Positions 6,764 through 38,065 of a stretch of DNA of 41,182 nucleotides are shown piece after piece. The DNA comes from Candidatus Nomurabacteria bacterium (lineage in GTDB: Bacteria; Patescibacteriota; Minisyncoccia; Phycocordibacterales; UBA9973), in the NCBI GenBank assembly GCA_023267115.1, contig JAHFNV010000003.1, positions 1-41,182 on the forward strand. The letters are read 5' to 3'. Both the position numbers and the translations under genes were made by a program. A model generated the notes under the pieces. The model was not told where the DNA came from, made no database searches, and worked only from the letters and a program-made list of their open reading frames with translations. Position 1 is the first letter of the stretch. Every line of letters begins with the position of its first letter.

Positions 6764-7150
6764 TTACCAAATTTTAAATAACGCTTCGCCTCCGACCTGT
6801 TCCTTTTTTGCTTCTTTGCCCCCTAAGATTCCTTTAGGTGTTGAGAGTACTAAAAGCCCGAACCCATTTCTAACGGGGTGAATATCTTTGACTCCAAAAT
6901 AAACTCGACGGGATTGTTTGGAAATTCTTTCAATGTGGGAAATTTTTGGATTCTTGTCTATATAAACTAATGACAGTTTCAATATTGGTCGATCTTTTTT
7001 GGTTTTTTGAGAAACATCGGAAATGTAGCCTTCTTTCTTCAGACATTGGCCAATGGCATTTTTTATTTTAGAATACGGAACAGTGACGGTAGTTTTACCA
7101 GCCAGTCCGGCATTCTTCAGCATTATTATCATGTTTGAAATTGGATCCAT
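6764..7150 (-). CDS. rpsH: 30S ribosomal protein S8
   Basis: DPISNMIIMLKNA...GGEALFKIW. Confidence 0.93.
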   Translation of the reverse strand: MDPISNMIIMLKNAGLAGKTTVTVPYSKIKNAIGQCLKKEGYISDVSQKTKKDRPILKLSLVYIDKNPKISHIERISKQSRRVYFGVKDIHPVRNGFGLLVLSTPKGILGGKEAKKEQVGGEALFKIW

Positions 7151-7158
7151 ATCCTTTC

Positions 7159-7344
7159 TTACCAGCTTGATTTTCTCACCCCTGGCAATTTTCCTTCATT
7201 AGCTAATTCTCTAAAACAAATACGGCAGACGCCAAAATCGCGCATAAAAGCATTGCCTCGTCCGCAACGAAAGCAGCGGTTTTTCCGCCGAGTACTAAAT
7301 TTCGCTTTCTTTTTGCTTCGGGCGATAACTGATGTTTTAGCCAT
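7159..7344 (-). CDS. rpsN: 30S ribosomal protein S14, zinc-binding type Z
   Basis: 61 aa with CFRCGR...CRICFRE (CxxC...CxxC) and C-terminal KSSW. Confidence 0.92.
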
Positions 7345-7548
7345 AATAATTAGTTTCTAGGAACAAGTAGTTAATGGCCAGAACCCAGCCACTATAGCCT
7401 AATTTGACAATATCACACTCTTTTCCTTACTGCCTCAAGTTGATTGAGAAAATAAGGAGAAAAATGGATTAATCAAAACTGTATTCCCTTGCTTTTGATA
7501 GTAGCAAATAAAGAGTCGGGAGTCAAATAAATAATAGCTGAAGTTGTT

Positions 7549-8106
7549 TTATTTCCCTTCCTCTTTCTTAAAAGGAATTCCCAAAAGCTCAAAGAGGGCT
7601 GTGCCTTCTTTTTTGTTTTTTGCGCTTGAAACCAGAGTTATAGACAAGCCAAAAACATCTTTGATGTCTTCATCGGCCGTTTCCGGAAAAATAGTATGCT
7701 CCTTGATGCCAAGGGTAAGGTTACCGATATTGTCCACGGCGCCACGAGAAATACCGCGAAAATCTTTAGTGCGAGGCAAGGCGACATTTATTAGCTTCTC
7801 CAAAAATGCGTACATTCTTTTGCCACGCAAAGTTACTACCACACCTATCGGATCGCCTTGGCGAATTTTGAAAGAAGCGATGGACTGCTTGGCGCCTCGA
7901 AAAGCCCCTTTTTGGCCAGTGATTTTTGCCAAACGCAAAGAGATGGCATCGTTTTTGTTTTTGTCCTTCTTTACCGCTGTGCCAGTGCCTACATTCAACA
8001 CAACTTTGGTCATCTTCGGCGTAGCCATCGCGTTTTTGTAACTGAAAACATTTTTCAGTTTTTCAAACGCCATTGTTTCTTTTTCTTTTACTGTTGAATG
8101 TTTCAT
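7549..8106 (-). CDS. rplE: 50S ribosomal protein L5
   Basis: PKMTKVVLNVGTG...FRGAKQSIASFKIRQGDPIGVVVTLRG..MYAFLEKL. The true start could be the internal Met12. Confidence 0.9.
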   Translation of the reverse strand: MKHSTVKEKETMAFEKLKNVFSYKNAMATPKMTKVVLNVGTGTAVKKDKNKNDAISLRLAKITGQKGAFRGAKQSIASFKIRQGDPIGVVVTLRGKRMYAFLEKLINVALPRTKDFRGISRGAVDNIGNLTLGIKEHTIFPETADEDIKDVFGLSITLVSSAKNKKEGTALFELLGIPFKKEEGK

Positions 8107-8120
8107 AAAATTGTTCTATA

Positions 8121-8339
8121 TTAATCAACTTTTTTAACATTTGAAGCGTGGATCGGCATGGCAACACTGACGACACTTCCCTTTTCGTTACTCTTTTTCG
8201 GACGCTGATGTTTCTTCATAAGATTAGCTCCTTCGACTATAACTTTATTTTGCCGAATCAAAACACGAGCAATCTTCCCTTTTTTGCCCCTATCTTTGCC
8301 CGTTATGATTACGATATTGTCTCCTTTTTTGATTTTCAT
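8121..8339 (-). CDS. rplX: 50S ribosomal protein L24 (short, KOW)
   Basis: MKIKKGDNIVIITGKDRGKKGKI. Confidence 0.88.
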   Translation of the reverse strand: MKIKKGDNIVIITGKDRGKKGKIARVLIRQNKVIVEGANLMKKHQRPKKSNEKGSVVSVAMPIHASNVKKVD

Positions 8340-8367
8340 AATTATAAATTATAAAGTAATGATGAAT

Positions 8368-8739
8368 TTAAATGACTTCCTGCGCCAGTGAAATTATTTT
8401 TTGAAAACCTTTTTCCTGAAGCTCTTTGGGAATCGGCCCGAAAATTCGCCCAGCCTTCGGATCAAGCTTGTCTTTCTCCAGTATCACCACCGCATTATCA
8501 TCAAAACGTATATAGGATCCGTCTTTTCTTCTGTGCGCATTCCTAGTCCGAACAACCACAGCCTGATGCACATCTTTCTTTTTGACGCTCTTGCGCGGAC
8601 TGGCAACTTTGACTGAGATAACCACCAACTCACCCAAACCGGCATATCTCTTTTTTGAGGACCCCAAAATTTTAAACACTTTGCCCACAGTGCCTCCAGT
8701 ATTATCCGTTATTTTTACTAAACTGCCATCTTGAATCAT
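8368..8739 (-). CDS. rplN: 50S ribosomal protein L14
   Basis: MIQDGSLVKITDNTG...AVVVRTR...IRFDDNAVVIL. Confidence 0.95.
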   Translation of the reverse strand: MIQDGSLVKITDNTGGTVGKVFKILGSSKKRYAGLGELVVISVKVASPRKSVKKKDVHQAVVVRTRNAHRRKDGSYIRFDDNAVVILEKDKLDPKAGRIFGPIPKELQEKGFQKIISLAQEVI

Positions 8740-8758
8740 AAAAATTCTTTATAACTTT

Positions 8759-9046
8759 CTATTTAATAACTTTAAACGTCTTGTCTTTTGAGATAGGCCT
8801 AGTTTCAACTATTTCCACCCTATCTCCTATTTTATATTTATTTTCTTCGTCGTGCGCTTTGTACTTCTTGCTAACCTTATAAAATTTCCCATAAAGTGGA
8901 TATTTAATGAATCGCGAAACGGAAACAACGACGGTTTTATCCATCTTGTCTTTTATCACTACCCCGCTTAATATTCTTCCCGTCGAAACCAAGGATTTGG
9001 CTGATAAGCCCTTTTTATTTTTGTTTTGCATTTTGTTTTCGCTCAT
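8759..9046 (-). CDS. rpsQ: 30S ribosomal protein S17
   Basis: [16 protein letters not shown]...[27 protein letters not shown]. It overlaps the rpmC 3' end. Confidence 0.9.
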
Positions 9047-9227
9047 TCATAAATGTTAAAATCTTGGCAACTTGTTTTCTTAAACTGGCCGACTCTTTGA
9101 CATTCTTTGATTTAGAACCTTCGGCTTTAAATCGTATGACGCCGATTTTTTCGCGCAATTCAGCCAGTTTTTTCTTAAGCTCATCCGACTTCATGTTTTT
9201 TAAATTTTCTTTTGTATTTTTTGACAT
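9015..9227 (-). CDS. rpmC: 50S ribosomal protein L29
   Basis: 70 aa: [18 protein letters not shown], in operon position. Confidence 0.85.
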
Positions 9228-9256
9228 ATTTTTTTAGTAGTTTTTTAATAGTCGGA

Positions 9257-9688
9257 TTACTTCCACTGGTGCGATCTTGAAATGATTCTGGTTTTGATGG
9301 GCAATTTGCTACCAGCTTTTCTTAAGGCTTCGTTCGCAACCGCTTCTTCCACTCCATCTACCTCAAAAATAATACGGCCCGGTAAAACTGAAAAGCAATA
9401 ACCTTGTGGATCTCCTTTGCCCTTACCCATGCCCATTTCCGCGGCCTTGGCCGTATAGGGACGGTCTGGAAAAATACGAATCCAGTATTTGCCGGCCTTG
9501 GTTAAGGTGCGAGATATCACTTTTCTGGCCGATTCAATTTGGGCTGATTTTACCCGTGCTTCTGTTTCAGATTTCAAACCATAAGAACCAAAAGAAAGAC
9601 GCGTACCCCGAGTACTCGGCGACACCGTTTTGGGGTTAGTGCGACCCGTTTGCCATTTTCTAAATTTTACTTTTTTGGGTATTAACAT
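9257..9688 (-). CDS. rplP: 50S ribosomal protein L16
   Basis: MLIPKKVKFRKWQTGR...GKGKGDPQGY. The start was set at the internal ATG 9688. Confidence 0.92.
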   Translation of the reverse strand: MLIPKKVKFRKWQTGRTNPKTVSPSTRGTRLSFGSYGLKSETEARVKSAQIESARKVISRTLTKAGKYWIRIFPDRPYTAKAAEMGMGKGKGDPQGYCFSVLPGRIIFEVDGVEEAVANEALRKAGSKLPIKTRIISRSHQWK

Positions 9689-9728
9689 GATGTATTTGGT
9701 ATTGAGAGGCAAGGCCTCTCTACTTTCT

Positions 9729-10403
9729 TCATTTTTCTACTTTTTTCTTGTCCGCAAATATTTTACCCCGATAAATCCAAACTTTCACCCCGATGGTTCC
9801 GTAAGGCAAGACGGCGCGTTCGCGCTTAAAATCAATATCCGCGCGAAAAGTCTGGAGTGGAATAGAGCCGCGCTTTAATTCTTCCGTGCGGGCAATTTCA
9901 GCTCCACCAAGCCGACCAGAAAGCACTATTCGAGCGCCTTCCACACCACGCGCCGTCATTACTTTCTCCATAATTTGCTTAATGACGCGGCGATAGGGCA
10001 ACCTCTTTTCTAAACCCTCAGCGATCATATAAGCGACAATACTGGCGTCGGCTTCCGGATTTGATACTTCAATAATTTCCAGTTTAAAATCCTCCGGCCG
10101 AGTCAACTGTAATTTATCCATTTTCTGCAAAATATCTTCTTTTAGTTTCGCTGCTCCTTCACCTGAACGCCCAATAACAAGACCGGGTCGGGAAGTTTTG
10201 ATAATAAATCGGGTCGCTTTCCGACTTCTTTCAATTTCAATGGAAGACACATACATCCCGCGCAGTTTTTTTTCTAAAAACTCTCGTATTAAGACGTCGC
10301 CCCTCAAGTAGTCGCAGTATTTTTTACGATCGGCAAACCAACGGGATCGCCAGTCTCGAAGAATCACCAATCTATGCGCGTATGGGTGGACTATTTTGGA
10401 CAT
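9729..10403 (-). CDS. rpsC: 30S ribosomal protein S3
   Basis: KIVHPYAHRL...KH domain...GRLGGAEIARTE. Confidence 0.95.
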   Translation of the reverse strand: MSKIVHPYAHRLVILRDWRSRWFADRKKYCDYLRGDVLIREFLEKKLRGMYVSSIEIERSRKATRFIIKTSRPGLVIGRSGEGAAKLKEDILQKMDKLQLTRPEDFKLEIIEVSNPEADASIVAYMIAEGLEKRLPYRRVIKQIMEKVMTARGVEGARIVLSGRLGGAEIARTEELKRGSIPLQTFRADIDFKRERAVLPYGTIGVKVWIYRGKIFADKKKVEK

Positions 10404-10714
10404 AAAATTATGGTTACATGGCTGGTGCGTTTGTTAATTTTGTGCCCCGAGCCCATGGCAGCCGGCATCATTCTTTTCATGGTAACACCTTTATCTACTC
10501 GCAATTCTTTAATAAGCAGATTTTCTTTTTCAACCCCTTTTTGGTGAGCATTGGCCACAGCGGAAAGTAAAAGTTTCTTCAGCGGCAAACTGGCGCGCTT
10601 AGCCAAAAAATCAAGCTCTGTTATGGCAGCCGGCACATTTTTCCCTCTTACTAATTCAGCCACCAAACGAACTTTTCGTGGAGACTGCCTATAATTTTTT
10701 AAAAAGGCTTTCAT
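10391..10714 (-). CDS. rplV: 50S ribosomal protein L22
   Basis: YRQSPRKVRLVAELVRGKNV..A...L.F. Confidence 0.92.
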   Translation of the reverse strand: MKAFLKNYRQSPRKVRLVAELVRGKNVPAAITELDFLAKRASLPLKKLLLSAVANAHQKGVEKENLLIKELRVDKGVTMKRMMPAAMGSGHKINKRTSHVTIILCPK

Positions 10715-10745
10715 AATTAATTTTGTTCCACATGTTGTTCCACAT

Positions 10746-10776
10746 GTCAGACATGTGGGATTCCCAGATGTCTGAC
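10746..10776 (-). promoter_or_regulatory. Intercistronic near-perfect hairpin in the rpsS-rplV spacer
   Basis: gtcagacatgtggga / tcccagatgtctgac pairs 14 of 15 positions. It is preceded by a tandem gttccacatgt x2 (10725-10747). Confidence 0.5.
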
Positions 10777-10783
10777 TTGTGGG

Positions 10784-11131
10784 CTATTTCTTTTTAGCAT
10801 CTTCGGCCACGGCCGTCGCGGTCTTGGCCTGGGCGATTTCCGCCTCTTTCTTTTTTTGCTCAAGTTCTTTCTGCATCTTCCCGCCATGCTTCACGAACTT
10901 CTTGGTCGGCGAGAATTCTCCCAAGCGGTGTCCGACCATATCTTCGGTAATGAATACTTCCACGTGAGTCTTGCCATTATGAACCCCAAAAGTGAAACCA
11001 AGCATCTCGGGCGCGATAACACAAGCTCTCTTCCAAGTCTTGATCACGGGAGTCTGGAGCGGATTTTTGCCGGCTATCTTTTTCAAGATTCCTTCATCTA
11101 CGTATATGCCTTTTTTGATTGATCGGGTCAT
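10784..11131 (-). CDS. rpsS: 30S ribosomal protein S19 with a Lys/Glu/Ala-rich C-terminal tail
   Basis: MTRSIKKGIYVDEGILKKI...GHRLGEFSPT. The start was set at the internal ATG 11131. The upstream part of the tracked ORF translates promoter/UTR. Confidence 0.92.
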   Translation of the reverse strand: MTRSIKKGIYVDEGILKKIAGKNPLQTPVIKTWKRACVIAPEMLGFTFGVHNGKTHVEVFITEDMVGHRLGEFSPTKKFVKHGGKMQKELEQKKKEAEIAQAKTATAVAEDAKKK

Positions 11132-11166
11132 AATAAACAAATAGGCTCTCGTTTGAGCCTCGCAAC

Positions 11167-11194
11167 ATAGTAGCAAATTAAAATGTAATGTCAA
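11167..11194 (-). promoter_or_regulatory. Candidate sigma70-type promoter restarting rpsS
   Basis: On the minus strand: TTGACA (11194-11189), 16 nt, TACTAT (11172-11167), immediately after an intrinsic terminator. Confidence 0.5.
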
Positions 11195-11196
11195 AC

Positions 11197-11228
11197 AAAA
11201 AAAATGGGGGGTTCACTAAGAACCCCCC
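11197..11228 (-). terminator. Intrinsic terminator (unit 2)
   Basis: On the minus strand: GGGGGGUUC-UUAGU-GAACCCCCC followed by A + U8. Confidence 0.6.
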
Positions 11229-11360
11229 TGCCAAAAGTAGTCCCTCTTTTTTTTACCACCCCCGGTTGGGGGTGGCTTTTTCACCTCCTTTCTGGTGAGG
11301 GTTGGCGATGGCTTCCAGCCATCGCCAACCCTCTTTAAGGAAAAGTGGATGTGCAAAGTC
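11197..11360 (-). ncRNA. Candidate structured ncRNA unit 2 (about 165 nt, unclassified)
   Basis: Lies downstream of TTGCAT-17-TATACT. It has a 16-bp perfect hairpin at 11297-11333, an 8-bp hairpin at 11256-11275, and a terminator hairpin at 11206-11228 followed by U8. No credible ORF. Confidence 0.45.
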
Positions 11361-11366
11361 AGTTTC

Positions 11367-11395
11367 AGTATATTACCAATCTAAAAAAAATGCAA
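11367..11395 (-). promoter_or_regulatory. Candidate promoter of ncRNA unit 2
   Basis: On the minus strand: TTGCAT (11395-11390), 17 nt, TATACT (11372-11367). The TTGCATT..TTTTAGATT block is repeated at the unit 1 promoter. Confidence 0.45.
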
Positions 11396-11419
11396 CCAGA
11401 AATAGGGGATAAAAAATTA

Positions 11420-11457
11420 TAAAAAAGAAAGGGGCCTCGAGCACAAGCTCGAGGCCC
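11420..11457 (-). terminator. Intrinsic terminator (unit 1)
   Basis: On the minus strand: GGGCCUCGAGC-UUGU-GCUCGAGGCCC followed by CUUUCUUUUUU. Confidence 0.6.
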
Positions 11458-11610
11458 TATATGTGGGCTTCGCTGGCAGATTCCCGCCTTTCGGCGGGAA
11501 TAAGGCAGATTTTGGGGAGCTTGGTCGGGCTCCCCATGAGGAGATCTTGCCAATAACATTGGCAAAACCTTTTGCCCCCGCGCCTAGTCGCGGGGGGACA
11601 GCGATCCACT
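11421..11610 (-). ncRNA. Candidate structured ncRNA unit 1 (about 190 nt, unclassified)
   Basis: A closing helix pairs 11600-11609 with 11463-11474. Four GC-rich hairpins lie at 11575-11597, 11547-11565, 11514-11535 and 11480-11501 (the last has a GAAA loop on the minus strand), followed by a terminator. Confidence 0.45.
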
Positions 11611-11613
11611 TTT

Positions 11614-11641
11614 ACTTTATCATTAATCTAAAAGAATGCAA
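11614..11641 (-). promoter_or_regulatory. Candidate promoter of ncRNA unit 1
   Basis: On the minus strand: TTGCAT (11641-11636), 16 nt containing TGA, TAAAGT (11619-11614). This is an extended -10-like arrangement, directly after the rplB stop. Confidence 0.4.
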
Positions 11642-11662
11642 ACAGATTTTTTGTTAAGCACC

Positions 11663-12502
11663 TTACTTATTTTTACCCGTGCGGCGGCGGGAAACTATAA
11701 AAACATTGGAGTACTTTTTCGGAGTGCGGGTTTTGCGACCGCCGGTGACTTTGCCCCACATGGTTTTCGGGCGCTTGGTGCCACGGCCTTGCCGACCTTC
11801 ACCGCCGCCATATGGATGATCCACTGGGTTCATAGCGGTACCGCGAACCGTCGGGCGAATACCCCTCCAGCGACTGCGACCCGCTTTGCCGTAATTTACC
11901 AAATGATGTTCTTCGTTTGAGACAACACCCACCGAGGCCCAACAATTTTCGTTTATCCTTCTAATTTCTGATGAGGGCATTTTTATATTGGTATATCCAT
12001 CGGTATTGGCCACCACTTGGGCGAAGATTCCAGCCGAACGGCCGATTTTCGCCCCGCCATGCGGATTTATTTCAATATTATAGACAAAAGTTCCAACCGG
12101 AATATTGCGTAATGGCAATCTATTGCCCGGGTTTAATTCCGCTTTTTCGGAAACAATAAAAGAGTCGCCTGATTTTACCGATTTTGGCAAAACAACATAT
12201 CTTTTCTCTCCATCTTTGTAAACGGCCAAACCAATAAAGGCCGAGCGATTGGGATCGTATTCGACAGATTTTATTTTAGCGGGAATTTCTTTCTTATCAT
12301 ATAAAAAATCAACTTGACGATAAAGACGCTTATGCCCCCCGCCCTTGTGCCTTACAGTAATGCGTCCTTGGCTATTGCGTCCAACTGCGCGTTTCCTGCC
12401 ATAAGTCAGAGATTTAGTCGGCGGGAACTTAGTCAAAATATCGTGATAATTGACATTCGTCATTTGCCTTCTTGATTTGCTTGTTGGTTTATATGTTTTC
12501 AT
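11663..12502 (-). CDS. rplB: 50S ribosomal protein L2
   Basis: GRNSQGRITVRHKGGGHKR...MNPVDHPYGGGEGR. Confidence 0.96.
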   Translation of the reverse strand: MKTYKPTSKSRRQMTNVNYHDILTKFPPTKSLTYGRKRAVGRNSQGRITVRHKGGGHKRLYRQVDFLYDKKEIPAKIKSVEYDPNRSAFIGLAVYKDGEKRYVVLPKSVKSGDSFIVSEKAELNPGNRLPLRNIPVGTFVYNIEINPHGGAKIGRSAGIFAQVVANTDGYTNIKMPSSEIRRINENCWASVGVVSNEEHHLVNYGKAGRSRWRGIRPTVRGTAMNPVDHPYGGGEGRQGRGTKRPKTMWGKVTGGRKTRTPKKYSNVFIVSRRRTGKNK

Positions 12503-12507
12503 CGTGA

Positions 12508-12774
12508 TTATATTTCTATTTTGTCGCCTTTTTTCAGGTAGACCAGTGCTTTCCAGCCACCTGTTTTTACTCCAGATTTTCCTCGAACAAGAATATGTTT
12601 ATCGGCTACTTTCAACAGGTTAATTTTAGTCGGCTTAACTTTATAAAGCGCCAATATCGCTTTTTTTATTTCTGTTTTGTTGGCGGACGGTAAAACATCA
12701 AAAGTGTACACATTTTGCTCAAGCATTTTGCTCGCTTTCTCGGTTACTCTGGGGTTTTTTATTATATTGGACAT
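12508..12774 (-). CDS. rplW: 50S ribosomal protein L23
   Basis: PRVTEKASKMLEQNVYTFDV... Confidence 0.9.
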   Translation of the reverse strand: MSNIIKNPRVTEKASKMLEQNVYTFDVLPSANKTEIKKAILALYKVKPTKINLLKVADKHILVRGKSGVKTGGWKALVYLKKGDKIEI

Positions 12775-12778
12775 AAAC

Positions 12779-13438
12779 TTAACCTCTAGATTCTAAAAAC
12801 TTTATGCTGGCTGCTGGATTTTCTATTAAAAGATATTGGTAATTTAAAATTTGCAACGGATTTAAATTCTTCACAAAAACCAATTCTAATTGGGGCAAGT
12901 TCCTGAAACTTTTTTCGGTTTTTTCATTTCGCTCAAAAAGAGCAACTAGCACTCTGGGCTTTTTGGAAGCGATTAGCGCTTTCCAACCCGAAGCTTTTGA
13001 TAAATTCTTGGCAACCTCCAAAGCTCCTGTGGTTTTCACAAAAGGCAAAGAAAGTGAATCAACAAAAAATATTTCACCGTCTTTCATTTTCTTGGCAAGC
13101 ACGGAAAAAAGAGCCTGAGCGCGCATTTTCTTGGAAATTTTTCTTTTATAATTCTTTTCCTTAATCGGTCCATGGGTAACACCTCCGCCAACCCAAATAG
13201 GAGAACGTATTGACCCGTGGCGGGCGCGCCCTGTTCCTTTTTGTTTCCAGGGTTTCCTGCCTCCGCCACGAACCTCCCCGCGATCTTTAGTGTCAGCCGT
13301 TCCGGCGCGCAAATTTCCACGCATGCTCTCTACCACCTGATGCACCAAATCCGCGCGCCATTTAGCGGCGAAAACTTTAGCTGGAAGATCTATTTTCCCG
13401 ACCTCTTTCCCTTTTTGATTGTATACTTTTGCTTCCAT
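12779..13438 (-). CDS. rplD: 50S ribosomal protein L4
   Basis: GGGRKPWKQKGTGRARHGSIRSPIWVGGGVTHGP. Confidence 0.95.
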   Translation of the reverse strand: MEAKVYNQKGKEVGKIDLPAKVFAAKWRADLVHQVVESMRGNLRAGTADTKDRGEVRGGGRKPWKQKGTGRARHGSIRSPIWVGGGVTHGPIKEKNYKRKISKKMRAQALFSVLAKKMKDGEIFFVDSLSLPFVKTTGALEVAKNLSKASGWKALIASKKPRVLVALFERNEKTEKSFRNLPQLELVFVKNLNPLQILNYQYLLIENPAASIKFLESRG

Positions 13439-13459
13439 GATTTTAAAATTTTTCTCTTC

Positions 13460-13495
13460 AAGGTCTTGCCTTGGACTCCATTAAGGCAAGACCTT
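13460..13495 (-). promoter_or_regulatory. Intercistronic 13-bp perfect hairpin (rplC-rplD spacer)
   Basis: aaggtcttgcctt (13460-13472) pairs with aaggcaagacctt (13483-13495) across a 10-nt loop. Confidence 0.5.
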
Positions 13496-13506
13496 TTCCC
13501 GAAAAA

Positions 13507-14124
13507 TTATCTACTAACAATTTCAACCAAAGATCCGCGCCTGCCTGCTACCGCTCCCTTTACCAACATTAAATTATTCTCTTTATCTATAAAAACGACT
13601 TTCAAATTTTTCTGGGTAATTCTACCAGAACCCATTCGACCAGCCATTCTCATGCCAGCCGGCACGCGGGTTCGCAGACCCCCACCAATGGACCCTGGTT
13701 CTCTTTCGGAGTGTTTCTGGCCATGGGTGCGAGGACCACCGTGGAAACCATGACGCTTCACCACTCCTTGAAAACCTTTCCCTTTGGAGATGCTTGAAAT
13801 TTTAATCTTGTCGCCTGGAGCAAAAACTGAAACATCAATTATATCGCCAACTTTCCTGTCATTTTGATCTGCCGTCTTTAATCTAAATTCTTTAAGAACC
13901 TTATAAAGCCCACCTCTCATTTGGCCTAAATGGGCCTTGCTGATCTTATGTTTCTTTCCACTACCAAAACCGACTTGGACGGAATCATAGCCATCTTTAG
14001 ATTTTTCGAAGACTCTAGTGATGGTCACTGGCCCGGCTGAAACAACCGTCACTGGAACGACCTGGCCGTCTTGTTCAAAATATTCGGTCATATTCTCTTT
14101 TGTTCCAAGAATGAATTTTGTCAT
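13507..14124 (-). CDS. rplC: 50S ribosomal protein L3
   Basis: GKGFQGVVKRHGFHGGPRTHGQ..HSEREPGSIG. Confidence 0.95.
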   Translation of the reverse strand: MTKFILGTKENMTEYFEQDGQVVPVTVVSAGPVTITRVFEKSKDGYDSVQVGFGSGKKHKISKAHLGQMRGGLYKVLKEFRLKTADQNDRKVGDIIDVSVFAPGDKIKISSISKGKGFQGVVKRHGFHGGPRTHGQKHSEREPGSIGGGLRTRVPAGMRMAGRMGSGRITQKNLKVVFIDKENNLMLVKGAVAGRRGSLVEIVSR

Positions 14125-14184
14125 GTTTTGTTTCAGTCCGCCATAGGCGGATTTTGAAAATATAGTCGCAAAGTTCCTTATTTT

Positions 14185-14631
14185 CTACAACATCTTCACA
14201 TCAATATCGACTCCGGAAGGAAGCGACAAATTGGTCAGGGCTTCAATTGTTTTTTGATTTGGATTAATAATGTCAATTAATCGCTTATGTATCCGAATCT
14301 CAAATTGTTCTCGTGAGTTTTTGTAAATAAACGCTGAACGATTAACCGTGTATTTTTTAATCTCGGTGGGTAACGGTACCGGTCCGACAATTAGAGCATC
14401 GTAACGTATAGCGGTATCGATAATTTGCTTCACCGACGCATCTAGGATTTTGTTTTCGTAAGCGCGAACTCTAATCCGAAGTACCACTTTGTTTTCTGCT
14501 CCAACCTTCTGCCTACTGGTAGATAGAGCTGGACGAGCAAGTTTTGCTTTGAGCTTAGTAGTTGGCTTTGGAGTTTTTGTCTTTGGCTTGGTCGAGATTT
14601 TCCTTTTTTTTATTTTTGTTTCTGTTGCCAT
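14185..14631 (-). CDS. rpsJ: 30S ribosomal protein S10 with an N-terminal extension of about 45 aa rich in Lys/Thr/Pro
   Basis: LRIRVRAYENKILD...VGPVPLPT..K.YTVNRS.F..K.SREQFE.R.HKRLIDI. Confidence 0.93.
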   Translation of the reverse strand: MATETKIKKRKISTKPKTKTPKPTTKLKAKLARPALSTSRQKVGAENKVVLRIRVRAYENKILDASVKQIIDTAIRYDALIVGPVPLPTEIKKYTVNRSAFIYKNSREQFEIRIHKRLIDIINPNQKTIEALTNLSLPSGVDIDVKML

Positions 14632-14705
14632 TTATTTAGGCTCTAGGTTTTAGGAATTTTGGGTTTTGATTTTTTTGCTGGCCCCTAAGAGTAGTCATAT
14701 TTGCG

Positions 14706-15899
14706 CTATTTCAGAATTTTAGTAACCACGCCGGCACCGACGGTTTTACCTCCCTCACGAATGGCAAATCTTTGTTGTTCATCAAGCGCCACCGGAGTAA
14801 CCAATTTTACCGTGATTTTGATTGTATCCCCAGGCATAACCATCTCCGTTCCTTCCGCCAAAACAACATCACCGGTAACATCCGTTGTCCGAATGTAAAA
14901 TTGAGGTTTATAACCACTAAAAAAAGGAGTATGGCGTCCACCTTCTTCTTTTTTCAAAACATATATCTCGCAGGTAAAATTGTCGTGAGGGGTGACAGTG
15001 CCCGGCTTGGCCAAAACTTGTCCGCGAGTAATGTCTTCTTTCTTCAATCCGCGCAAAAGAATACCGGCATTGTCTCCAGCCATTCCTTCTTGCAAATTTT
15101 TGTTGAACATTTCAATTCCGGTAACAGTTGTTTTTTGAGTCGGCTTAATACCCACAATTTCAACTTCTTCTCCGACTTTTACCACTCCCCGCTCAATTTT
15201 TCCGGTCACCACTGTACCACGACCTTCAATAGAAAATATATCTTCAACCGGCATAAGAAACGGCTTCTCTATATCACGCACCGGAACCGGAATATATGTA
15301 TCAAGCGCATTCACCAATTGAAGAATCTTTTTGGCCCATTCATCGTCAACCGACTTGGATTCAAGAGCTTTTAAGGCGCTACCGCGAATGACGGGGACAT
15401 TGGCGCCATCAAAACCTTGCTTGGTTAAAAGTTCGCGAATTTCTTCTTCCACTAAATCAATCATATCTTTATCGTCAACCATATCGCACTTGTTGAGAAA
15501 CACAATCATCTTCGGTACCCCGACTTGCCTGGCCAAGAGCACGTGTTCGCGCGTCTGTGGCATAGCACCATCGGTCGCCGCCACCACCAAAATAGAGCCG
15601 TCCATTTGAGCCGCGCCAGTAATCATGTTTTTGATGTAATCGGCATGCCCTGGAGCATCAATGTGCGCATAGTGGCGAGCATCGGTTGAATATTCGTTGT
15701 GTGAAATATTAATAGTGATGCCACGAGCTTTTTCTTCCGGCGCATTATCAATCTGATCAACCCCTCTTAATCTCACTTGTTTTCCCGCCATGTTTAAAAC
15801 ATGCAGGATGGCCGCGGTCAAAGTCGTCTTGCCATGATCAACGTGACCAATGGTACCGACATTAATATGCGGTCTGTCTCTTTTAAATTCTTCTGCCAT
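14706..15899 (-). CDS. tuf: Elongation factor Tu
   Basis: [25 protein letters not shown], and GRHTPF near the C-terminus. Confidence 0.98.
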
Positions 15900-15991
15900 A
15901 TTTTTTATTTATTAAATCTTATAATGCCAAACCGCTTTTGCGGTTGCCAAAAAATCGGCAACATAAAAACCGCAAAAGTGCAGTTGTCAAC

Positions 15992-16019
15992 ATACTAACA
16001 AATTAAAAAGTATTGTCAA
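15992..16019 (-). promoter_or_regulatory. Candidate tuf promoter
   Basis: On the minus strand: TTGACA (16019-16014), 16 nt, TAGTAT (15997-15992). An 11-bp inverted repeat cttttgcggtt/aaccgcaaaag lies in the UTR. Confidence 0.4.
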
Positions 16020-16034
16020 ATTAGAAGATGGCCA

Positions 16035-16601
16035 TTAGCTAGAAAAAATAATTTCTATTTTCTTATCCTTGAATTCAGATAAATGCTCTAGGAGTTTTAT
16101 CGCCAAATGATTAGGCAAGTTGTCGTAATTTTCAATATCAGGAGTAATGTTTACTTTTAGTTTGCTAAGTTCATCTTTGGTTTTAAAATCAAGAACTGTA
16201 AGCGTCCCCGATCTTTTTCTCTCTACAATGGAACGTAAAACTTTTTTCTCTTTATCAGTTACCTGCATAGCATCAACCATTTTATAGTATAAATCTGGCG
16301 CTGATTCAAGATTCTTTTGTGTAGTAATTAGGACGGTGATCTTATTAACCGCCAAACCCTTTTCCATATAATCAAGCATCTTTTTCGCCAGTAGAAATAC
16401 TTCTTTACGAGTATGCCAAATCTGCGCCCCTTTTTTCTCATCTTCTGGGAAGGTACCTATTGCTATCCTGTAAGCCGTAAAAAGTTCGTCGCTTGAAAAG
16501 TTGTGATACTCGCAAAACGAAATAAGGTCGTTTATCTGTTCTTTTTCTAAACTGCTACTCCCTCCCGCCGGCGGTTCAAATTGATTTTTCATTAAGGACA
16601 A
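16035..16601 (-). CDS. Hypothetical protein (188 aa) inserted between fusA and tuf
   Basis: Long clean ORF with no motif I can recognise. Confidence 0.5.
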   Translation of the reverse strand: MSLMKNQFEPPAGGSSSLEKEQINDLISFCEYHNFSSDELFTAYRIAIGTFPEDEKKGAQIWHTRKEVFLLAKKMLDYMEKGLAVNKITVLITTQKNLESAPDLYYKMVDAMQVTDKEKKVLRSIVERKRSGTLTVLDFKTKDELSKLKVNITPDIENYDNLPNHLAIKLLEHLSEFKDKKIEIIFSS

Positions 16602-16614
16602 TATAGCTCTTTAG

Positions 16615-16899
16615 TTAAGTTTTAGCAATTCGAACTTCCTCACATAGCTTTTTTATTTCCATCTCTGGATTTTTGGATTGGGTAATCTGCCTACCGATAA
16701 CTAAGTAATCTGCCCCATTTCTAACAGCCTCAAGTGGAGTGCTAATTCTAGTTTGATCATTAACACCGACCCCGAGAGAGCGAATTCCTCCAATATCAAG
16801 GGTTACCCTTGATATTTTACCATCAGCAAAGACCCCAAAGGGCCCTTCCTTAAAGTTCTCTTCGTAAGTTTTTTCTGGATCATAGGATGGGGTAAGCAT
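16615..16899 (-). pseudogene. C-terminal remnant of an orotidine-5'-phosphate decarboxylase (PyrF-family) gene
   Basis: GGIRSLGVGVNDQTRISTPLEAVRNGADYLVIGRQITQSKNP matches the PyrF C-terminal GIR..DQ.R..TP..A...GAD.LV.GR.IT...P pattern. The ORF is only 94 aa and is preceded by about 300 bp of non-coding DNA. Confidence 0.6.
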
Positions 16900-17205
16900 T
16901 CTAAATATATTAACAAGAAAAGCAAAAAAATGAAAATAAATTTTTAGAAAACTCGCAAGGACAGTCCTTTAGAGTTAACGTTTTACGAAAAATCTTAACA
17001 AAAAGAAGATTAACCCGAAAACTAAAAGATCAATAGAAAATAAAGAAAGAAATCAATTCAATGGGGGCTCCTGCGTCAGAACAGTGAACTCGCCAATCAC
17101 ACTCACTTAAGAAAGGCAGGTATGGAATATATGTAAAAAATACTAAGAAAAATAATAGACCTAATGCAAGAATTTTTACAACCCTCATGAGTCAATTATA
17201 CCATA

Positions 17206-37254: not shown

Positions 37255-37260
37255 AATTAT

Positions 37261-38030
37261 TGTAGACGTCCAACATCTATTATAGACGTCCAACATCTAC
37301 ATTTTAATTTTCGTGAAAATCAATGGGAGCGAATTGCTTAATCGAACCATCTTTAGAAACTGACACCTTGCCTCTTTCTTCTCGAATAATTGAAATAATT
37401 TCAGTGCTGTGTTTTAAAAAATTTTTATATCCACCAAATATTTTCAAAAATTTCCTTCCCTCAACGGGGTTAACAAGATGAAAATTTCTGGTCTTATATT
37501 CCTGTTCACTTGTACGGATCAAATATTTTTTATTTTTAGGAATGTCATGCACGCGATAGTTCCACATGACATAAGAAAAAATCATTTCAAAATAATTTTC
37601 ACGTTCGACGTACGAAGATTTAAATCTTCCCTGCATTAGAGATCCACTACGTTTATGTCTATCATTAAAATATTTTGTGTAGCCACCTAGTAGGCGTTTC
37701 ATAAATTCGCTAATACCTCTATCTAATTCTTGTTTTAAAATTAAATGAAAATGATTAGGGTTCAAGCAATACTCCACTATAGATATCATTTTCTTTTTCT
37801 TATGTAGACGTTGAACGTCTACATTTTCACGAAGTGCAATCTGAACACTACCTACTGGATCTTTGTATGAGAATAATTTTAAGCAAAGTAGAAAGCGTTC
37901 GACATCTTTGTCATCAGAAAAAATATCACGTTTGTCTACCCCTCTGTTGTAAACATGATAATACGAACCATTAATAAAAGAATGTTTCCTCATCTTTATA
38001 TGATAACAAAATAGATGTCCAACGTCTACT
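37261..38030 (-). mobile_element. Minimal IS200-like / REP-associated (RAYT-like) element
   Basis: A single Y1-HUH transposase gene flanked by the 17-nt imperfect palindrome TAGAYGT-CCA-ACRTCTA: one copy at 38012-38028 and two tandem copies at 37263-37279 and 37283-37299. Confidence 0.65.
37304..37993 (-). CDS. IS200/IS605-family Y1 HUH transposase (RAYT-like)
   Basis: YYHVYNRGVDKRDIF, HUH motif NHFHLIL, GSLMQGRFKS, and a downstream Tyr-containing helix. Confidence 0.75.
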   Translation of the reverse strand: MRKHSFINGSYYHVYNRGVDKRDIFSDDKDVERFLLCLKLFSYKDPVGSVQIALRENVDVQRLHKKKKMISIVEYCLNPNHFHLILKQELDRGISEFMKRLLGGYTKYFNDRHKRSGSLMQGRFKSSYVERENYFEMIFSYVMWNYRVHDIPKNKKYLIRTSEQEYKTRNFHLVNPVEGRKFLKIFGGYKNFLKHSTEIISIIREERGKVSVSKDGSIKQFAPIDFHEN

Positions 38031-38065
38031 AACGTAAAATCAATAAAGTATTTAAATTGTTATAA

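Follow-up and report, generated by a model that had tools for sequence, protein, structure and literature searches.

Why do rplB and rpsS stand 531 nt apart in this Candidatus Nomurabacteria genome, and what does the DNA between them do? The sequence-only reading had called the two genes normally adjacent, which holds for distant bacteria, where they lie about 0-30 nt apart and sometimes overlap by one base, but not for the clade to which this genome belongs. In the window (the whole stretch of 41,182 nt that was analysed) the spacer runs from 11132 to 11662, and rpsS starts with an ATG at 11131 on the minus strand. The rplB product found itself at 100% identity in the protein index, its relatives carry PF00181 and PF03947, and RpsS matches PF00203 at 8.6e-32. 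The contig is a singleton in that index, the nearest other RplB being 89% identical. Read along the operon, the locus is laid out as follows.

11663-12502, minus strand: rplB (uL2), an ORF call, last gene of the upstream transcription unit
11614-11641, minus strand: putative promoter P1, TTGCAT (11641-11636), 16 nt, then TGaTAAAGT (extended -10; TAAAGT at 11619-11614)
11463-11609, minus strand: core of the predicted unit-1 RNA, a closing helix around four hairpins, with identical MFE and centroid structures
11599-11609 pairing with 11463-11475, minus strand: closing helix of 10 bp, GUGGAUCGCU at 11609-11600 and AGCGAAGCCCAC at 11474-11463
11575-11596, minus strand: unit-1 hairpin H1
11542-11570, minus strand: unit-1 hairpin H2, 13 bp including two G.U pairs
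11513-11536, minus strand: unit-1 hairpin H3
11480-11501, minus strand: unit-1 hairpin H4, with a GAAA loop
11421-11457, minus strand: intrinsic terminator T1, an 11-bp stem at 11457-11432 (9 GC), a UUGU loop and CUUUCUUUUUU
11367-11395, minus strand: putative promoter P2, TTGCAT (11395-11390), 17 nt, then TATACT (11372-11367)
11197-11360, minus strand: predicted unit-2 RNA, made up of H5, an SD-like motif, H6 and T2
11297-11333, minus strand: H5, a 17-bp perfect hairpin with a GGA loop
11281-11292, minus strand: SD-like GAAAGGAGGUGA of unit 2, with no start codon after it
11256-11275, minus strand: unit-2 hairpin H6
11206-11228, minus strand: terminator T2, a 9-bp stem (7 GC) followed by U8, ATTTTTTTT
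11167-11194, minus strand: P3, the rpsS promoter, TTGACA, 16 nt, then TGcTACTAT (10/12, with TG)
11132-11160, minus strand: rpsS leader, a 5' hairpin AGGCUC-AAACGA-GAGCCU (11143-11160), then AUUUGUUUAUU; no SD
10784-11131, minus strand: rpsS (uS19), first gene of the downstream transcription unit

The spacer probably contains two promoter-to-terminator units that make tightly folded non-coding RNAs. This minus-strand anatomy of promoter, structured body and terminator had been proposed before, and a reading of the sequence, a terminator scan and MFE folds bore it out, each promoter, helix, hairpin and terminator lying where it had been placed on that strand. Two hairpins needed correction: the supposedly 16-bp perfect hairpin at 11297-11333 is indeed perfect but measures 17 bp, and the one given as 7 bp (11547-11565) really reaches 13 bp (11542-11570), with two G.U pairs that are possible on the minus strand only. 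The description of the spacer as GC-rich applies to the transcribed bodies, which reach 57.7% and 50.6% where the window as a whole has 39.0% and its other gaps have 22-44%, but not to the spacer as a whole, whose 45.6% is on par with rplB (45.7%) and rpsS (48.0%).

The whole spacer folds far more strongly than shuffled sequences do (minus strand z = -14.0, plus strand z = -9.6). Unit 1 has an MFE of -106.7 kcal/mol (z = -8.7) in a structure that reproduces the closing helix, the four hairpins and T1, and unit 2 folds with z = -8.3. The closing helix contributes -15.4 kcal/mol, compared with -7.1 +/- 2.5 in shuffles, of which 18 in 5000 equal it. Seven of the ten perfect hairpins in the 41-kb window with a stem of at least 8 bp and at least 50% GC fall in the spacer. 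An intrinsic terminator had to show a GC-rich stem (5 bp or longer), 3-8 nt of loop and, directly 3' on the transcribed strand, a U-tract; T1, whose stem has CTTTCTTTTT on its 3' flank, and T2 both have this form, on the minus strand only, and they are the two top terminator calls in 7000-17000. The assignment of the units to the minus strand follows from the U-tracts of T1 and T2, found on that strand alone, together with the G.U pairs of H2 and the difference in folding strength between the strands.

All spacer stems are perfect Watson-Crick duplexes apart from the two G.U pairs in the extended H2, and a functional RNA explains such stems no better than plain terminators do, or palindromes that are young or act at the DNA level. 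The hairpins might be palindromes of the DNA itself, or what is left of a mobile element at a site prone to insertion, with selection or mutation acting on the DNA and not on RNA. Stems of up to 17 bp without a mismatch would suit this, and so would the site, which in relatives draws selfish genes (a GIY-YIG gene, HicA) and turns over its content. Against it, each hairpin is unique, neither the rest of the 41-kb window nor the 1.09 Mb of relatives' loci containing a second copy; the spacer holds no tandem repeats, terminal repeats or target duplications; blastn with the units found nothing in phage and plasmid records, and a pattern scan of IMG/VR for the 17-bp hairpin gave no match; and the U-tracts and G.U pairs are strand-specific. 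We regard this explanation as very improbable. The same lack of other copies and of terminal repeats led us to reject a dispersed repeat, MITE or REP, and retron, integron attC, REP and CRISPR were discarded as well, there being no nearby reverse transcriptase or integrase, no repeats and only hairpins that all differ. REP and BIME elements are GC-rich palindrome clusters in enterobacterial operon spacers and form families of hundreds of near-identical copies. The spacer resembles them in its GC-rich palindromic hairpins between co-directional genes, which could stabilise the upstream mRNA and stop transcription, but here the hairpins are confined to one locus (as judged in the 41-kb window and the relatives' loci) and the units have promoters of their own.

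These promoters were sought as sigma-70-type elements, with -35 and -10 hexamers 16-18 nt apart and an optional TGn extension. Only three of six positions in the -35 hexamers of P1 and P2 match TTGACA, and a generic promoter scan missed both. They fit the window's own promoter type, TTGCA(A/T)-16/17-(TGn)TATAnT, other window genes using TTGCAA-16/17-TGnTATAnT; seven matches to a P1/P2 consensus occur in the window against 2.7 expected, a count that is uninformative. The upstream part of P2 (TCTGnTTGCATTnTTTTAGATT) is a near copy of P1, with a self-match of 75.6% over 41 nt. Both promoters have counterparts at the same place in other genomes: P1 is 82.5% identical over 40 nt (E = 0.003) to a cassette promoter in the L146 spacer, a likeness that extends into the transcript start, P2 is 72% identical over 78 nt to the region just 3' of rplB in L017, and about 20 relatives carry a TTGCnT-16-TATAAA module soon after rplB, at the position of the P1/P2 match. 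In many window genes 6-7 nt separate the -10 hexamer from the ATG, so that they look leaderless.

The restart of rpsS from its own promoter, also part of the sequence-only reading, is supported by the comparison with relatives. P3 is kept in nearly all relatives' spacers, and an 88% copy of it lies upstream of tuf (15988-16020). The leader hairpin reads AAGCTC..GAGCTT in most relatives and AGGCTC..GAGCC(T/G) in the window, L097, L105 and L117, a compensatory change from A-T to G-C. The clade-conserved P3 and this 5' hairpin leader would restart rpsS and the genes downstream. For the two units we infer active promoters at P1 and P2, terminators at T1 and T2 that end transcription and so insulate the two operons from each other, and an accumulation of discrete, stable RNAs.

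In unit 1, P1 would drive an RNA of about 185 nt in which the 10-bp closing helix clamps four perfect GC-rich hairpins and which ends at T1. T1 is the first terminator that the scan met beyond the rplB stop, so that unit 1 also forms the rplB 3' UTR. The earlier notion of dedicated RNA genes hence does not apply cleanly to unit 1, whose folded block would double as the 3' end of the upstream ...rplD-rplW-rplB mRNA. Its layout would be that of a 3'-UTR-type sRNA with its own promoter. DapZ and MicL of enterobacteria are sRNAs that derive from 3' UTRs, start at a promoter of their own and end at the terminator of the mRNA, and unit 1 is similarly built, with a promoter just after the upstream stop codon and an end at the operon's first terminator. 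Given this promoter position and the shared terminator, the same RNA could come from P1 or from mRNA processing. Unit 1 differs from base-pairing sRNAs in being far more structured and in its lack of conservation, and an RNAduplex target search against the 5' regions of all window genes returned uninterpretable long-loop duplexes.

The position of unit 1 as a 3' UTR also invites a purely cis-acting explanation, by which the hairpins together with T1/T2 would terminate transcription as a compound element, stabilise the 3' end and insulate the two ribosomal-protein transcription units from each other, with weak or incidental activity of P1 and P2 and no need for an sRNA. T1 and T2 are the only strong GC-rich terminators in 41 kb, and relatives place promoterless terminator structures, simple or branched and with compensatory changes, directly after rplB (L001, L008, L010/L143 and L002/L107/L147). 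We nevertheless consider it distinctly unlikely that this is all there is to the spacer: a single terminator would suffice, relatives manage with gaps of 66-132 nt, unit 2 lies downstream of T1 with its own copy of the promoter, and the cassette promoters to which P1 is homologous serve SD-led ORFs in relatives.

In unit 2, P2 would drive an RNA of about 160 nt with the 17-bp hairpin, the SD-like AAAGGAGGUGA, a second hairpin and T2. Like the CsrB/RsmZ sponges it has GGA in a hairpin loop (H5) and in linkers (AAGGAGG, AGGGAC) ahead of its terminator, but there are only about three such motifs, and the PrrB_RsmZ model scores 15.3 bits against a gathering threshold of 44. Pairing of the SD-like motif with an upstream CCACUUUUCCUU was considered and rejected as being at chance level, 697 of 5000 shuffles doing as well.

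Neither unit matched a family in Rfam. The whole window, searched at the gathering threshold against Rfam 15, which includes RNase P, SRP, tmRNA, 6S, riboswitches, r-protein leaders, ribozymes and known sRNAs, yielded one tRNA only, and the spacer gave no match at that threshold, in agreement with the sequence-only reading. Relaxing the spacer search to E <= 10 brought up 24.9 bits (cut-off 35.7) and 24.2 bits (cut-off 39, BjrC68) as best scores, the BjrC68 match resting largely on the T1 terminator stem; L20_leader (22 bits, cut-off 58.7) and L31-Coriobacteria (22, cut-off 33) owed their scores mainly to a hairpin or terminator stem of generic kind. Neither tRNA nor tmRNA was detected in the spacer by ARAGORN, and 15 relatives' loci gave zero Rfam matches.

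The setting could still suggest tandem regulatory leaders (attenuators, riboswitch-like or ribosomal-protein-binding), in which a ligand or ribosomal protein sets read-through of T1/T2 into rpsS. Each unit is a promoter, a multi-helix junction with a P1-like closing helix and a terminator a few nucleotides on, and, like the S10 leader with its attenuation under L4 control, the units lie before a ribosomal-protein operon. The spacer shares with ribosomal-protein leaders and attenuators a structured RNA and terminator upstream of ribosomal-protein genes. But a full, clade-conserved P3 lies downstream of both terminators, which makes read-through unnecessary for rpsS expression; the MFE and centroid structures show no anti-terminator pairing; the uniformly perfect stems are unlike aptamers; the units are unconserved in relatives; and no Rfam leader reaches threshold, the real rpsS leader being the short conserved hairpin after P3. 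Such regulation is, in our view, quite improbable.

The two predicted RNAs are non-coding here. The ORFs of the spacer had been judged spurious, and they have neither credible homologues nor family matches: Pfam and NCBIfam were negative for all five, and protein searches covered 1.84 billion representatives and an index of 5.8 billion proteins. In these searches the 46-aa TTG ORF (11216-11356) had no homologue, and the 50-aa GTG ORF (11457-11609) matched only two tandem-repeat translations, judged artefacts. All three frames are open across unit 1, so that an open frame there is uninformative. It might be argued that one or both of these ORFs encode tiny proteins translated leaderless or from a very short leader, in view of the many leaderless-looking genes in the window and of the 50-aa ORF beginning about 4-5 nt past the -10 hexamer and ending with a stop codon that abuts the T1 stem. 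The GTG, however, lies upstream of the expected transcription start, and GTG and TTG are poor starts for leaderless translation. With no SD+ATG site in the spacer either, we hold tiny proteins to be a remote prospect.

What are the units, then, and where do they come from? With blastn and nhmmer their bodies had no homologue among 160 related loci, 1.09 Mb in all, nor did a covariance model built on a single sequence (R1) give an accepted one when run on the window and 96 loci (0.78 Mb); the sole hit, a 20-bit match on both strands to the hairpin-rich L119 spacer, was not taken as homology. Conservation in relatives had been named beforehand as a test of the two RNAs, and it went against them, although with the nearest RplB at 89% it is a weak test. 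Recognition as a conserved structured ncRNA would take homologues with covarying helices, and these 160 loci offered no homologue.

The relatives are more informative about the site itself. In Nomurabacteria-like Paceibacteria (RplB identity of at least about 65%) the rplB-rpsS gap ranges from 66 nt to more than 3.7 kb and always closes with the conserved rpsS promoter and leader hairpin. Its content changes from species to species and includes dgkA, a HicA toxin, a GIY-YIG gene, compensating structured elements and many SD-led mini-ORFs. The comparison indicates that the break in the operon is ancestral and shared by the whole clade, and that the gap is hypervariable. Contrary to what had been supposed, the break is not caused by the two RNAs. 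In the closest species (L001, RplB 89% identical) the 132-nt gap consists of terminator, promoter and leader only, which makes the units of the window either dispensable or recent.

Some gaps do carry signs of selection on RNA. L010 and L143 have a common closing stem around GC hairpins directly after rplB, with six compensated pairs and none broken, and L002, L093, L107 and L147 share a three-way element with five compensated pairs. Across these alignments there are eight distinct G.U positions on the operon strand (12 sequence-cells) against two C.A mismatch cells. The compensated pairs and the G.U bias appear to support, at the level of the class, selection on RNA structure at this site.

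Other gaps contain small genes. Small proteins of the cassette type were recognised by a strong SD lying 4-10 nt before the ATG of an ORF with 19 or more codons; the window spacer has no such site. The relatives' spacers hold 30 SD+ATG sites (6.8 +/- 2.7 in shuffles), 27 of them leading into ORFs of 19 codons or more, and such a site occurs in 24 of 49 spacers. These mini-ORFs are K/R-rich, 19-80 codons long, threaded through perfect GC hairpins joined by A-rich linkers, and mostly without kinship to each other. An SD precedes only about 2% of the lineage's ordinary genes, and hardly any strong GC-rich hairpins occur elsewhere.

The window's units share with these cassettes the site, the TTGCnT-16-(TGn)TATAAA module, a similar transcript start, GC-rich bodies of perfect hairpins with A-rich linkers, and a terminator followed by the conserved rpsS promoter and leader; the L119, L102 and L005 spacers show the same hairpin-array design. 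They differ in that about half of the relatives' cassettes have a canonical SD, an ATG and a K/R-rich ORF, whereas the window units have none, and the cassette bodies cannot be aligned with them. Judged by their make-up (host-type promoter, 5' clamp, GC hairpins with A-rich linkers, terminator), the units would be ORF-less members of this cassette class. We favour, with a probability of roughly 45%, the explanation that the spacer is this species' variable island at the old rplB/rpsS break, occupied by two ORF-less hairpin-array cassettes that would give RNAs of about 185 and 160 nt.

Might the cassettes instead be decayed? On this account they descend from SD-led mini-ORF cassettes that lost their start codons, and they may be transcribed with no function of their own. 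The enrichment of SD-led mini-ORF sites in relatives and the common hairpin and linker make-up would agree with it, as would the absence of the units from the closest species. Unit 2 keeps a perfect GAAAGGAGGTGA followed by AAAAAGCC, one T-to-A change short of an SD-5 nt-ATG arrangement (compare L102 and L141), and past that position the frame stays open for 20 K/G/P-rich codons. But promoters, terminators and all eight stems are intact and perfect, unlike what drift in a small, deletion-biased genome would leave, unit 1 has no SD-like remnant at all, and descent is undemonstrable, the relatives' mini-ORFs being mostly unrelated to each other. We think decay unlikely.

The variable island with two RNA cassettes, our preferred reading, can be carried further, more doubtfully: the cassettes may form an undescribed, fast-evolving class tied to the rplB|rpsS break of Nomurabacteria-like Paceibacteria, with a possible role at the ribosome or anti-SD and with RNA-only copies in the window. 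Their RNAs and/or basic peptides could then have the ribosome or its 16S 3' end as their target, for instance through occupation of the anti-SD, and this would tie the cassettes to the surrounding ribosomal-protein genes. We found no published description of hairpin-array or mini-ORF cassettes in the rplB-rpsS gap.

Should these RNAs prove real and stable, they would count among the earliest small-RNA candidates described from Patescibacteria, a vast group of uncultured organisms whose regulation at the RNA level is almost a blank, and they would lie inside a standard string of phylogenetic marker genes. Gaps of several hundred bases to kilobases at rplB-rpsS are normal in this clade and should not be taken for misassemblies. 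The wider pattern may outweigh the RNAs themselves: a clade-wide hot spot with a conserved restart promoter, filled, in genomes that make no other use of SD sequences, with fast-changing structured RNAs and basic mini-ORFs led by an SD. It would offer a handle on whether these ribosomes still use the anti-SD, and on the origin of new small genes and RNAs beside ribosomal genes.

Read on the minus strand, the 531-nt spacer between rplB and rpsS (11132-11662) shows exactly the promoter/hairpin/terminator layout described in the sequence-only reading; the perfect hairpin of the second unit is also present, with a stem of 17 bp and not the claimed 16 bp. Two units precede the restart of rpsS, and apart from rplB (an ORF) and rpsS (a PF00203 match) all features were read from the sequence:

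11663-12502, minus strand: rplB
11641-11614, minus strand: P1, putative promoter of unit 1, TTGCAT-16-TGaTAAAGT
11609-11599 with 11475-11463, minus strand: unit 1 closing helix, enclosing four hairpins
11457-11432, minus strand: T1, terminator of unit 1, then a U-tract
11395-11367, minus strand: P2, putative promoter of unit 2, TTGCAT-17-TATACT
11297-11333, minus strand: unit 2 perfect 17-bp hairpin
11256-11275, minus strand: second hairpin of unit 2, 8-9 bp
11228-11206, minus strand: T2, terminator of unit 2, with U8
11194-11167, minus strand: P3, rpsS promoter, TTGACA-16-TGcTACTAT
start at 11131, minus strand: rpsS

The source organism is a Nomurabacteria-like member of Paceibacteria (Patescibacteria). 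Its contig is a singleton, and in the protein index RplB matches itself at 100% and the next best protein at 89% identity.

On the minus strand the spacer has a folding energy of -232 kcal/mol (shuffles: -152 ± 5.7; z = -14.0), compared with z = -9.6 on the plus strand, and each unit folded separately gives z of about -8.5, with the centroid of unit 1 identical to its MFE structure. When the two strands of the unit 1 closing helix were shuffled 5000 times, 18 shuffles did as well or better. Seven of the ten perfect hairpins in 41 kb with stems of at least 8 bp and at least 50% GC fall inside the spacer; one of only three such GC-rich hairpins outside it is a perfect 8-bp hairpin, CCACATGTC(A/T)GACATGTGG, at 10740-10758 in the 69-nt rpsS-rplV gap. 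The reported GC richness is true of the transcribed bodies (58% and 51%, against 39% for the window and 22-44% for its other gaps) but not of the whole spacer, whose 45.6% does not exceed that of rplB or rpsS. Evidence for the minus strand comes from the U-tracts, the GAAA loop and, in the extended stem of the second unit 1 hairpin, two G.U pairs. Such strandedness, together with the lack of any match in phage or plasmid searches, makes palindromes acting at the DNA level or a mobile-element remnant very improbable. The spacer is partly like a REP/BIME-type hairpin cluster without being a member, its hairpins being unrepeated.

Among 160 related loci, the closest of which in GTDB are Candidatus Paceibacterota or Nomurabacteria, the separation of rplB and rpsS proved common. 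The two genes are indeed adjacent in distant bacteria (about 0-30 nt apart, overlapping by one base in some), but relatives at roughly 65-89% RplB identity have gaps of 66 nt to >3.7 kb, mostly 200-800 nt. This makes the break a property of the lineage and not, as had been proposed, an effect of the two units. Gap content between rplB and the restart module is hypervariable. Some gaps hold a terminator and nothing more (e.g. the 132-nt gap of L001, the closest species), and others harbor selfish or unrelated genes, i.e. a DAGK_prokar gene immediately 5' of rpsS in several relatives (L016:8036-8428, L024:5069-5461), a HicA toxin gene (L003:6067-6300) and an ORF with a GIY-YIG domain that lies between rpsS and a duplicate of its promoter (L097 spacer 195-470). 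Further gaps contain branched elements directly 3' of rplB whose helices are kept by compensatory changes. One (L010:4375-4530, L143:6351-6500) has a closing stem of ~20 bp from the rplB stop, GC-rich hairpins inside and a U-run at its end, with six pairs compensated and none broken. A 3-way element (L002:4846-4925, L093:3030-3175, L107:6176-6262, L147:3200-3285; also L157 and L016) is seen only in the rplB-rpsS spacer, with an outer AACCCC/GGGGTT stem around two hairpins with TTGTCA and TGATAA loops and five pairs compensated.

The closest kin of the window units are cassettes, not described before, that relatives carry in this gap. About 20 of their spacers carry a TTGCnT-16-(TGn)TATAAA promoter a short way past rplB that resembles P1 and P2 as far as the opening bases of the transcript (GTGGATC for the window and L146, ATGAAYC for others), followed by a 5' hairpin, perfect GC-rich hairpins with A-rich linkers and a terminator. 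Perfect GC-rich hairpins reach 0.83 per kb in these spacers, a 14-fold higher density than elsewhere in the loci (0.061 per kb). A canonical Shine-Dalgarno (SD) sequence 4-10 nt before ATG occurs in 24 of 49 relatives' spacers of at least 200 nt, amounting to 30 SD+ATG sites, where dinucleotide shuffles give 6.8 ± 2.7 and the antisense strand nine; 27 of the 30 begin an ORF of 19 codons or more (2.3 ± 1.5 in shuffles). These mini-ORFs of 19-80 codons are threaded through the perfect GC hairpins (e.g. L119:2967-3125, L161:173-415, and spacer positions 143-223 in L102, 94-267 in L092 and 79-300 in L098), and their K/R-rich products mostly lack kinship to each other. For the L098 product, a homologue with 81% identity occupies the corresponding position in another metagenome; six synonymous and six non-synonymous substitutions separate the two copies, along with an 18-nt indel that keeps the frame. 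SD-led mini-ORFs are odd here because ordinary genes of the clade lack SD sequences: a core precedes 15 of 649 ORFs of at least 100 aa in the window and relatives, many genes in the window appear leaderless, their -10 hexamer being 6-7 nt away from ATG, and the anti-SD motif was detected in only 48% of Parcubacteria in a published survey (PMC9297842).

The window units have the promoter module and the hairpin-array architecture in common with these cassettes, but their RNA bodies are orphans: blastn, nhmmer and a covariance model found no credible homologue in the related loci. The Rfam search of the spacer was negative too, after the original reading had been unable to match the RNAs to RNase P, SRP, tmRNA or 6S signatures. 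That the units encode tiny proteins is hardly probable. Unit 1 is open in all three frames throughout, so that an open frame there is uninformative; the 50-aa and 46-aa ORFs have no real homologues and no spacer ORF matches Pfam or NCBIfam, which supports the earlier view that the spacer ORFs look spurious. Decay from mini-ORF cassettes is rather unlikely. The window spacer has no SD+ATG site; unit 2 keeps a perfect GAAAGGAGGTGA, but followed by AAAAAGCC, a single substitution from the SD-5 nt-ATG of L102 and L141. Pairing of GAAAGGAGGTGA with an upstream CCUU was at chance level.

At the end of the gap, almost all relatives have a TTGAC(A/T)-16-TGnTAnnAT promoter and, after it, a short leader hairpin with a U-rich tract. 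Most loci have the hairpin as AAGCTC..GAGCTT; a subgroup including the window has AGGCTC..GAGCC(T/G), a compensatory change. An 88%-identical promoter copy upstream of tuf (15988-16020, minus strand, TTGACA-16-TGtTAGTAT), with its own hairpin and U-run (15968-15985, minus strand), implies a common promoter design for the two ribosomal-protein/EF-Tu transcription units. Tandem regulatory leaders are an improbable account of the two spacer units. Two relatives carry a conserved hairpin with a stem >20 bp, ACCCCCACACTTATATTAA...TTAATATAAGTGTGGGGGT, between the leader hairpin and rpsS (L102 spacer 345-415, L152 spacer 597-670), and in five (L087, L153, L132, L137, L148) the rpsS promoter is preceded, at a distance of ~90 nt, by a conserved AT-rich block (CACCACATATTTAAAATTCTGCAACACGATTTT...).

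Elsewhere the window has short direct repeats between or beside genes, namely an identical 34-mer (20132-20165/21320-21353), a 96%-identical 47-mer (23792-23838/25245-25291), an identical 29-mer upstream of two genes (31294-31322/32315-32343) and an 85%-identical 41-mer holding a TTGCAA-17-TATAGT leaderless promoter (19897-19937/20623-20663). Several copies of a palindrome, TAGACGT(C/T)(C/G)AAC(A/G)TCTA (37256-37305, 37798-37827, 38012-38039), surround the start of a gene (37304-37993) and have an operator-like appearance.

While the layout noted from the sequence alone is confirmed, its interpretation finds partial support. Our preferred reading, at somewhat below even odds (about 0.45), is that the spacer comprises two ORF-less hairpin-array cassettes whose RNAs of ~185 and ~160 nt end at T1 and T2. 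P1 and P2 would fire, and discrete RNAs may accumulate and perhaps function in trans. Because T1 is the first terminator after the rplB stop, unit 1 also serves as 3' UTR to the upstream operon, and its RNA would at once be the folded 3' end of rplB mRNA. T1 and T2, the top two terminator calls in a 10-kb scan, would terminate transcription and keep the upstream unit insulated from that of rpsS, where transcription would restart at the conserved P3 with its leader. A role purely in cis, as a compound terminator or insulator, is unlikely given the promoter module shared with relatives. As two ORF-less cassettes, the element would work like a 3'-UTR or intergenic sRNA locus, yet it is not a member: it matches no Rfam family and has no known target or protein partner. 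The window units are best classed as orphan structured-RNA units inside a lineage-specific variable island, and they might, as a tentative and doubtful extension, belong to a class of hairpin-array cassettes that is specific to the clade and linked to the ribosome, some members with SD-led basic mini-ORFs and some without.
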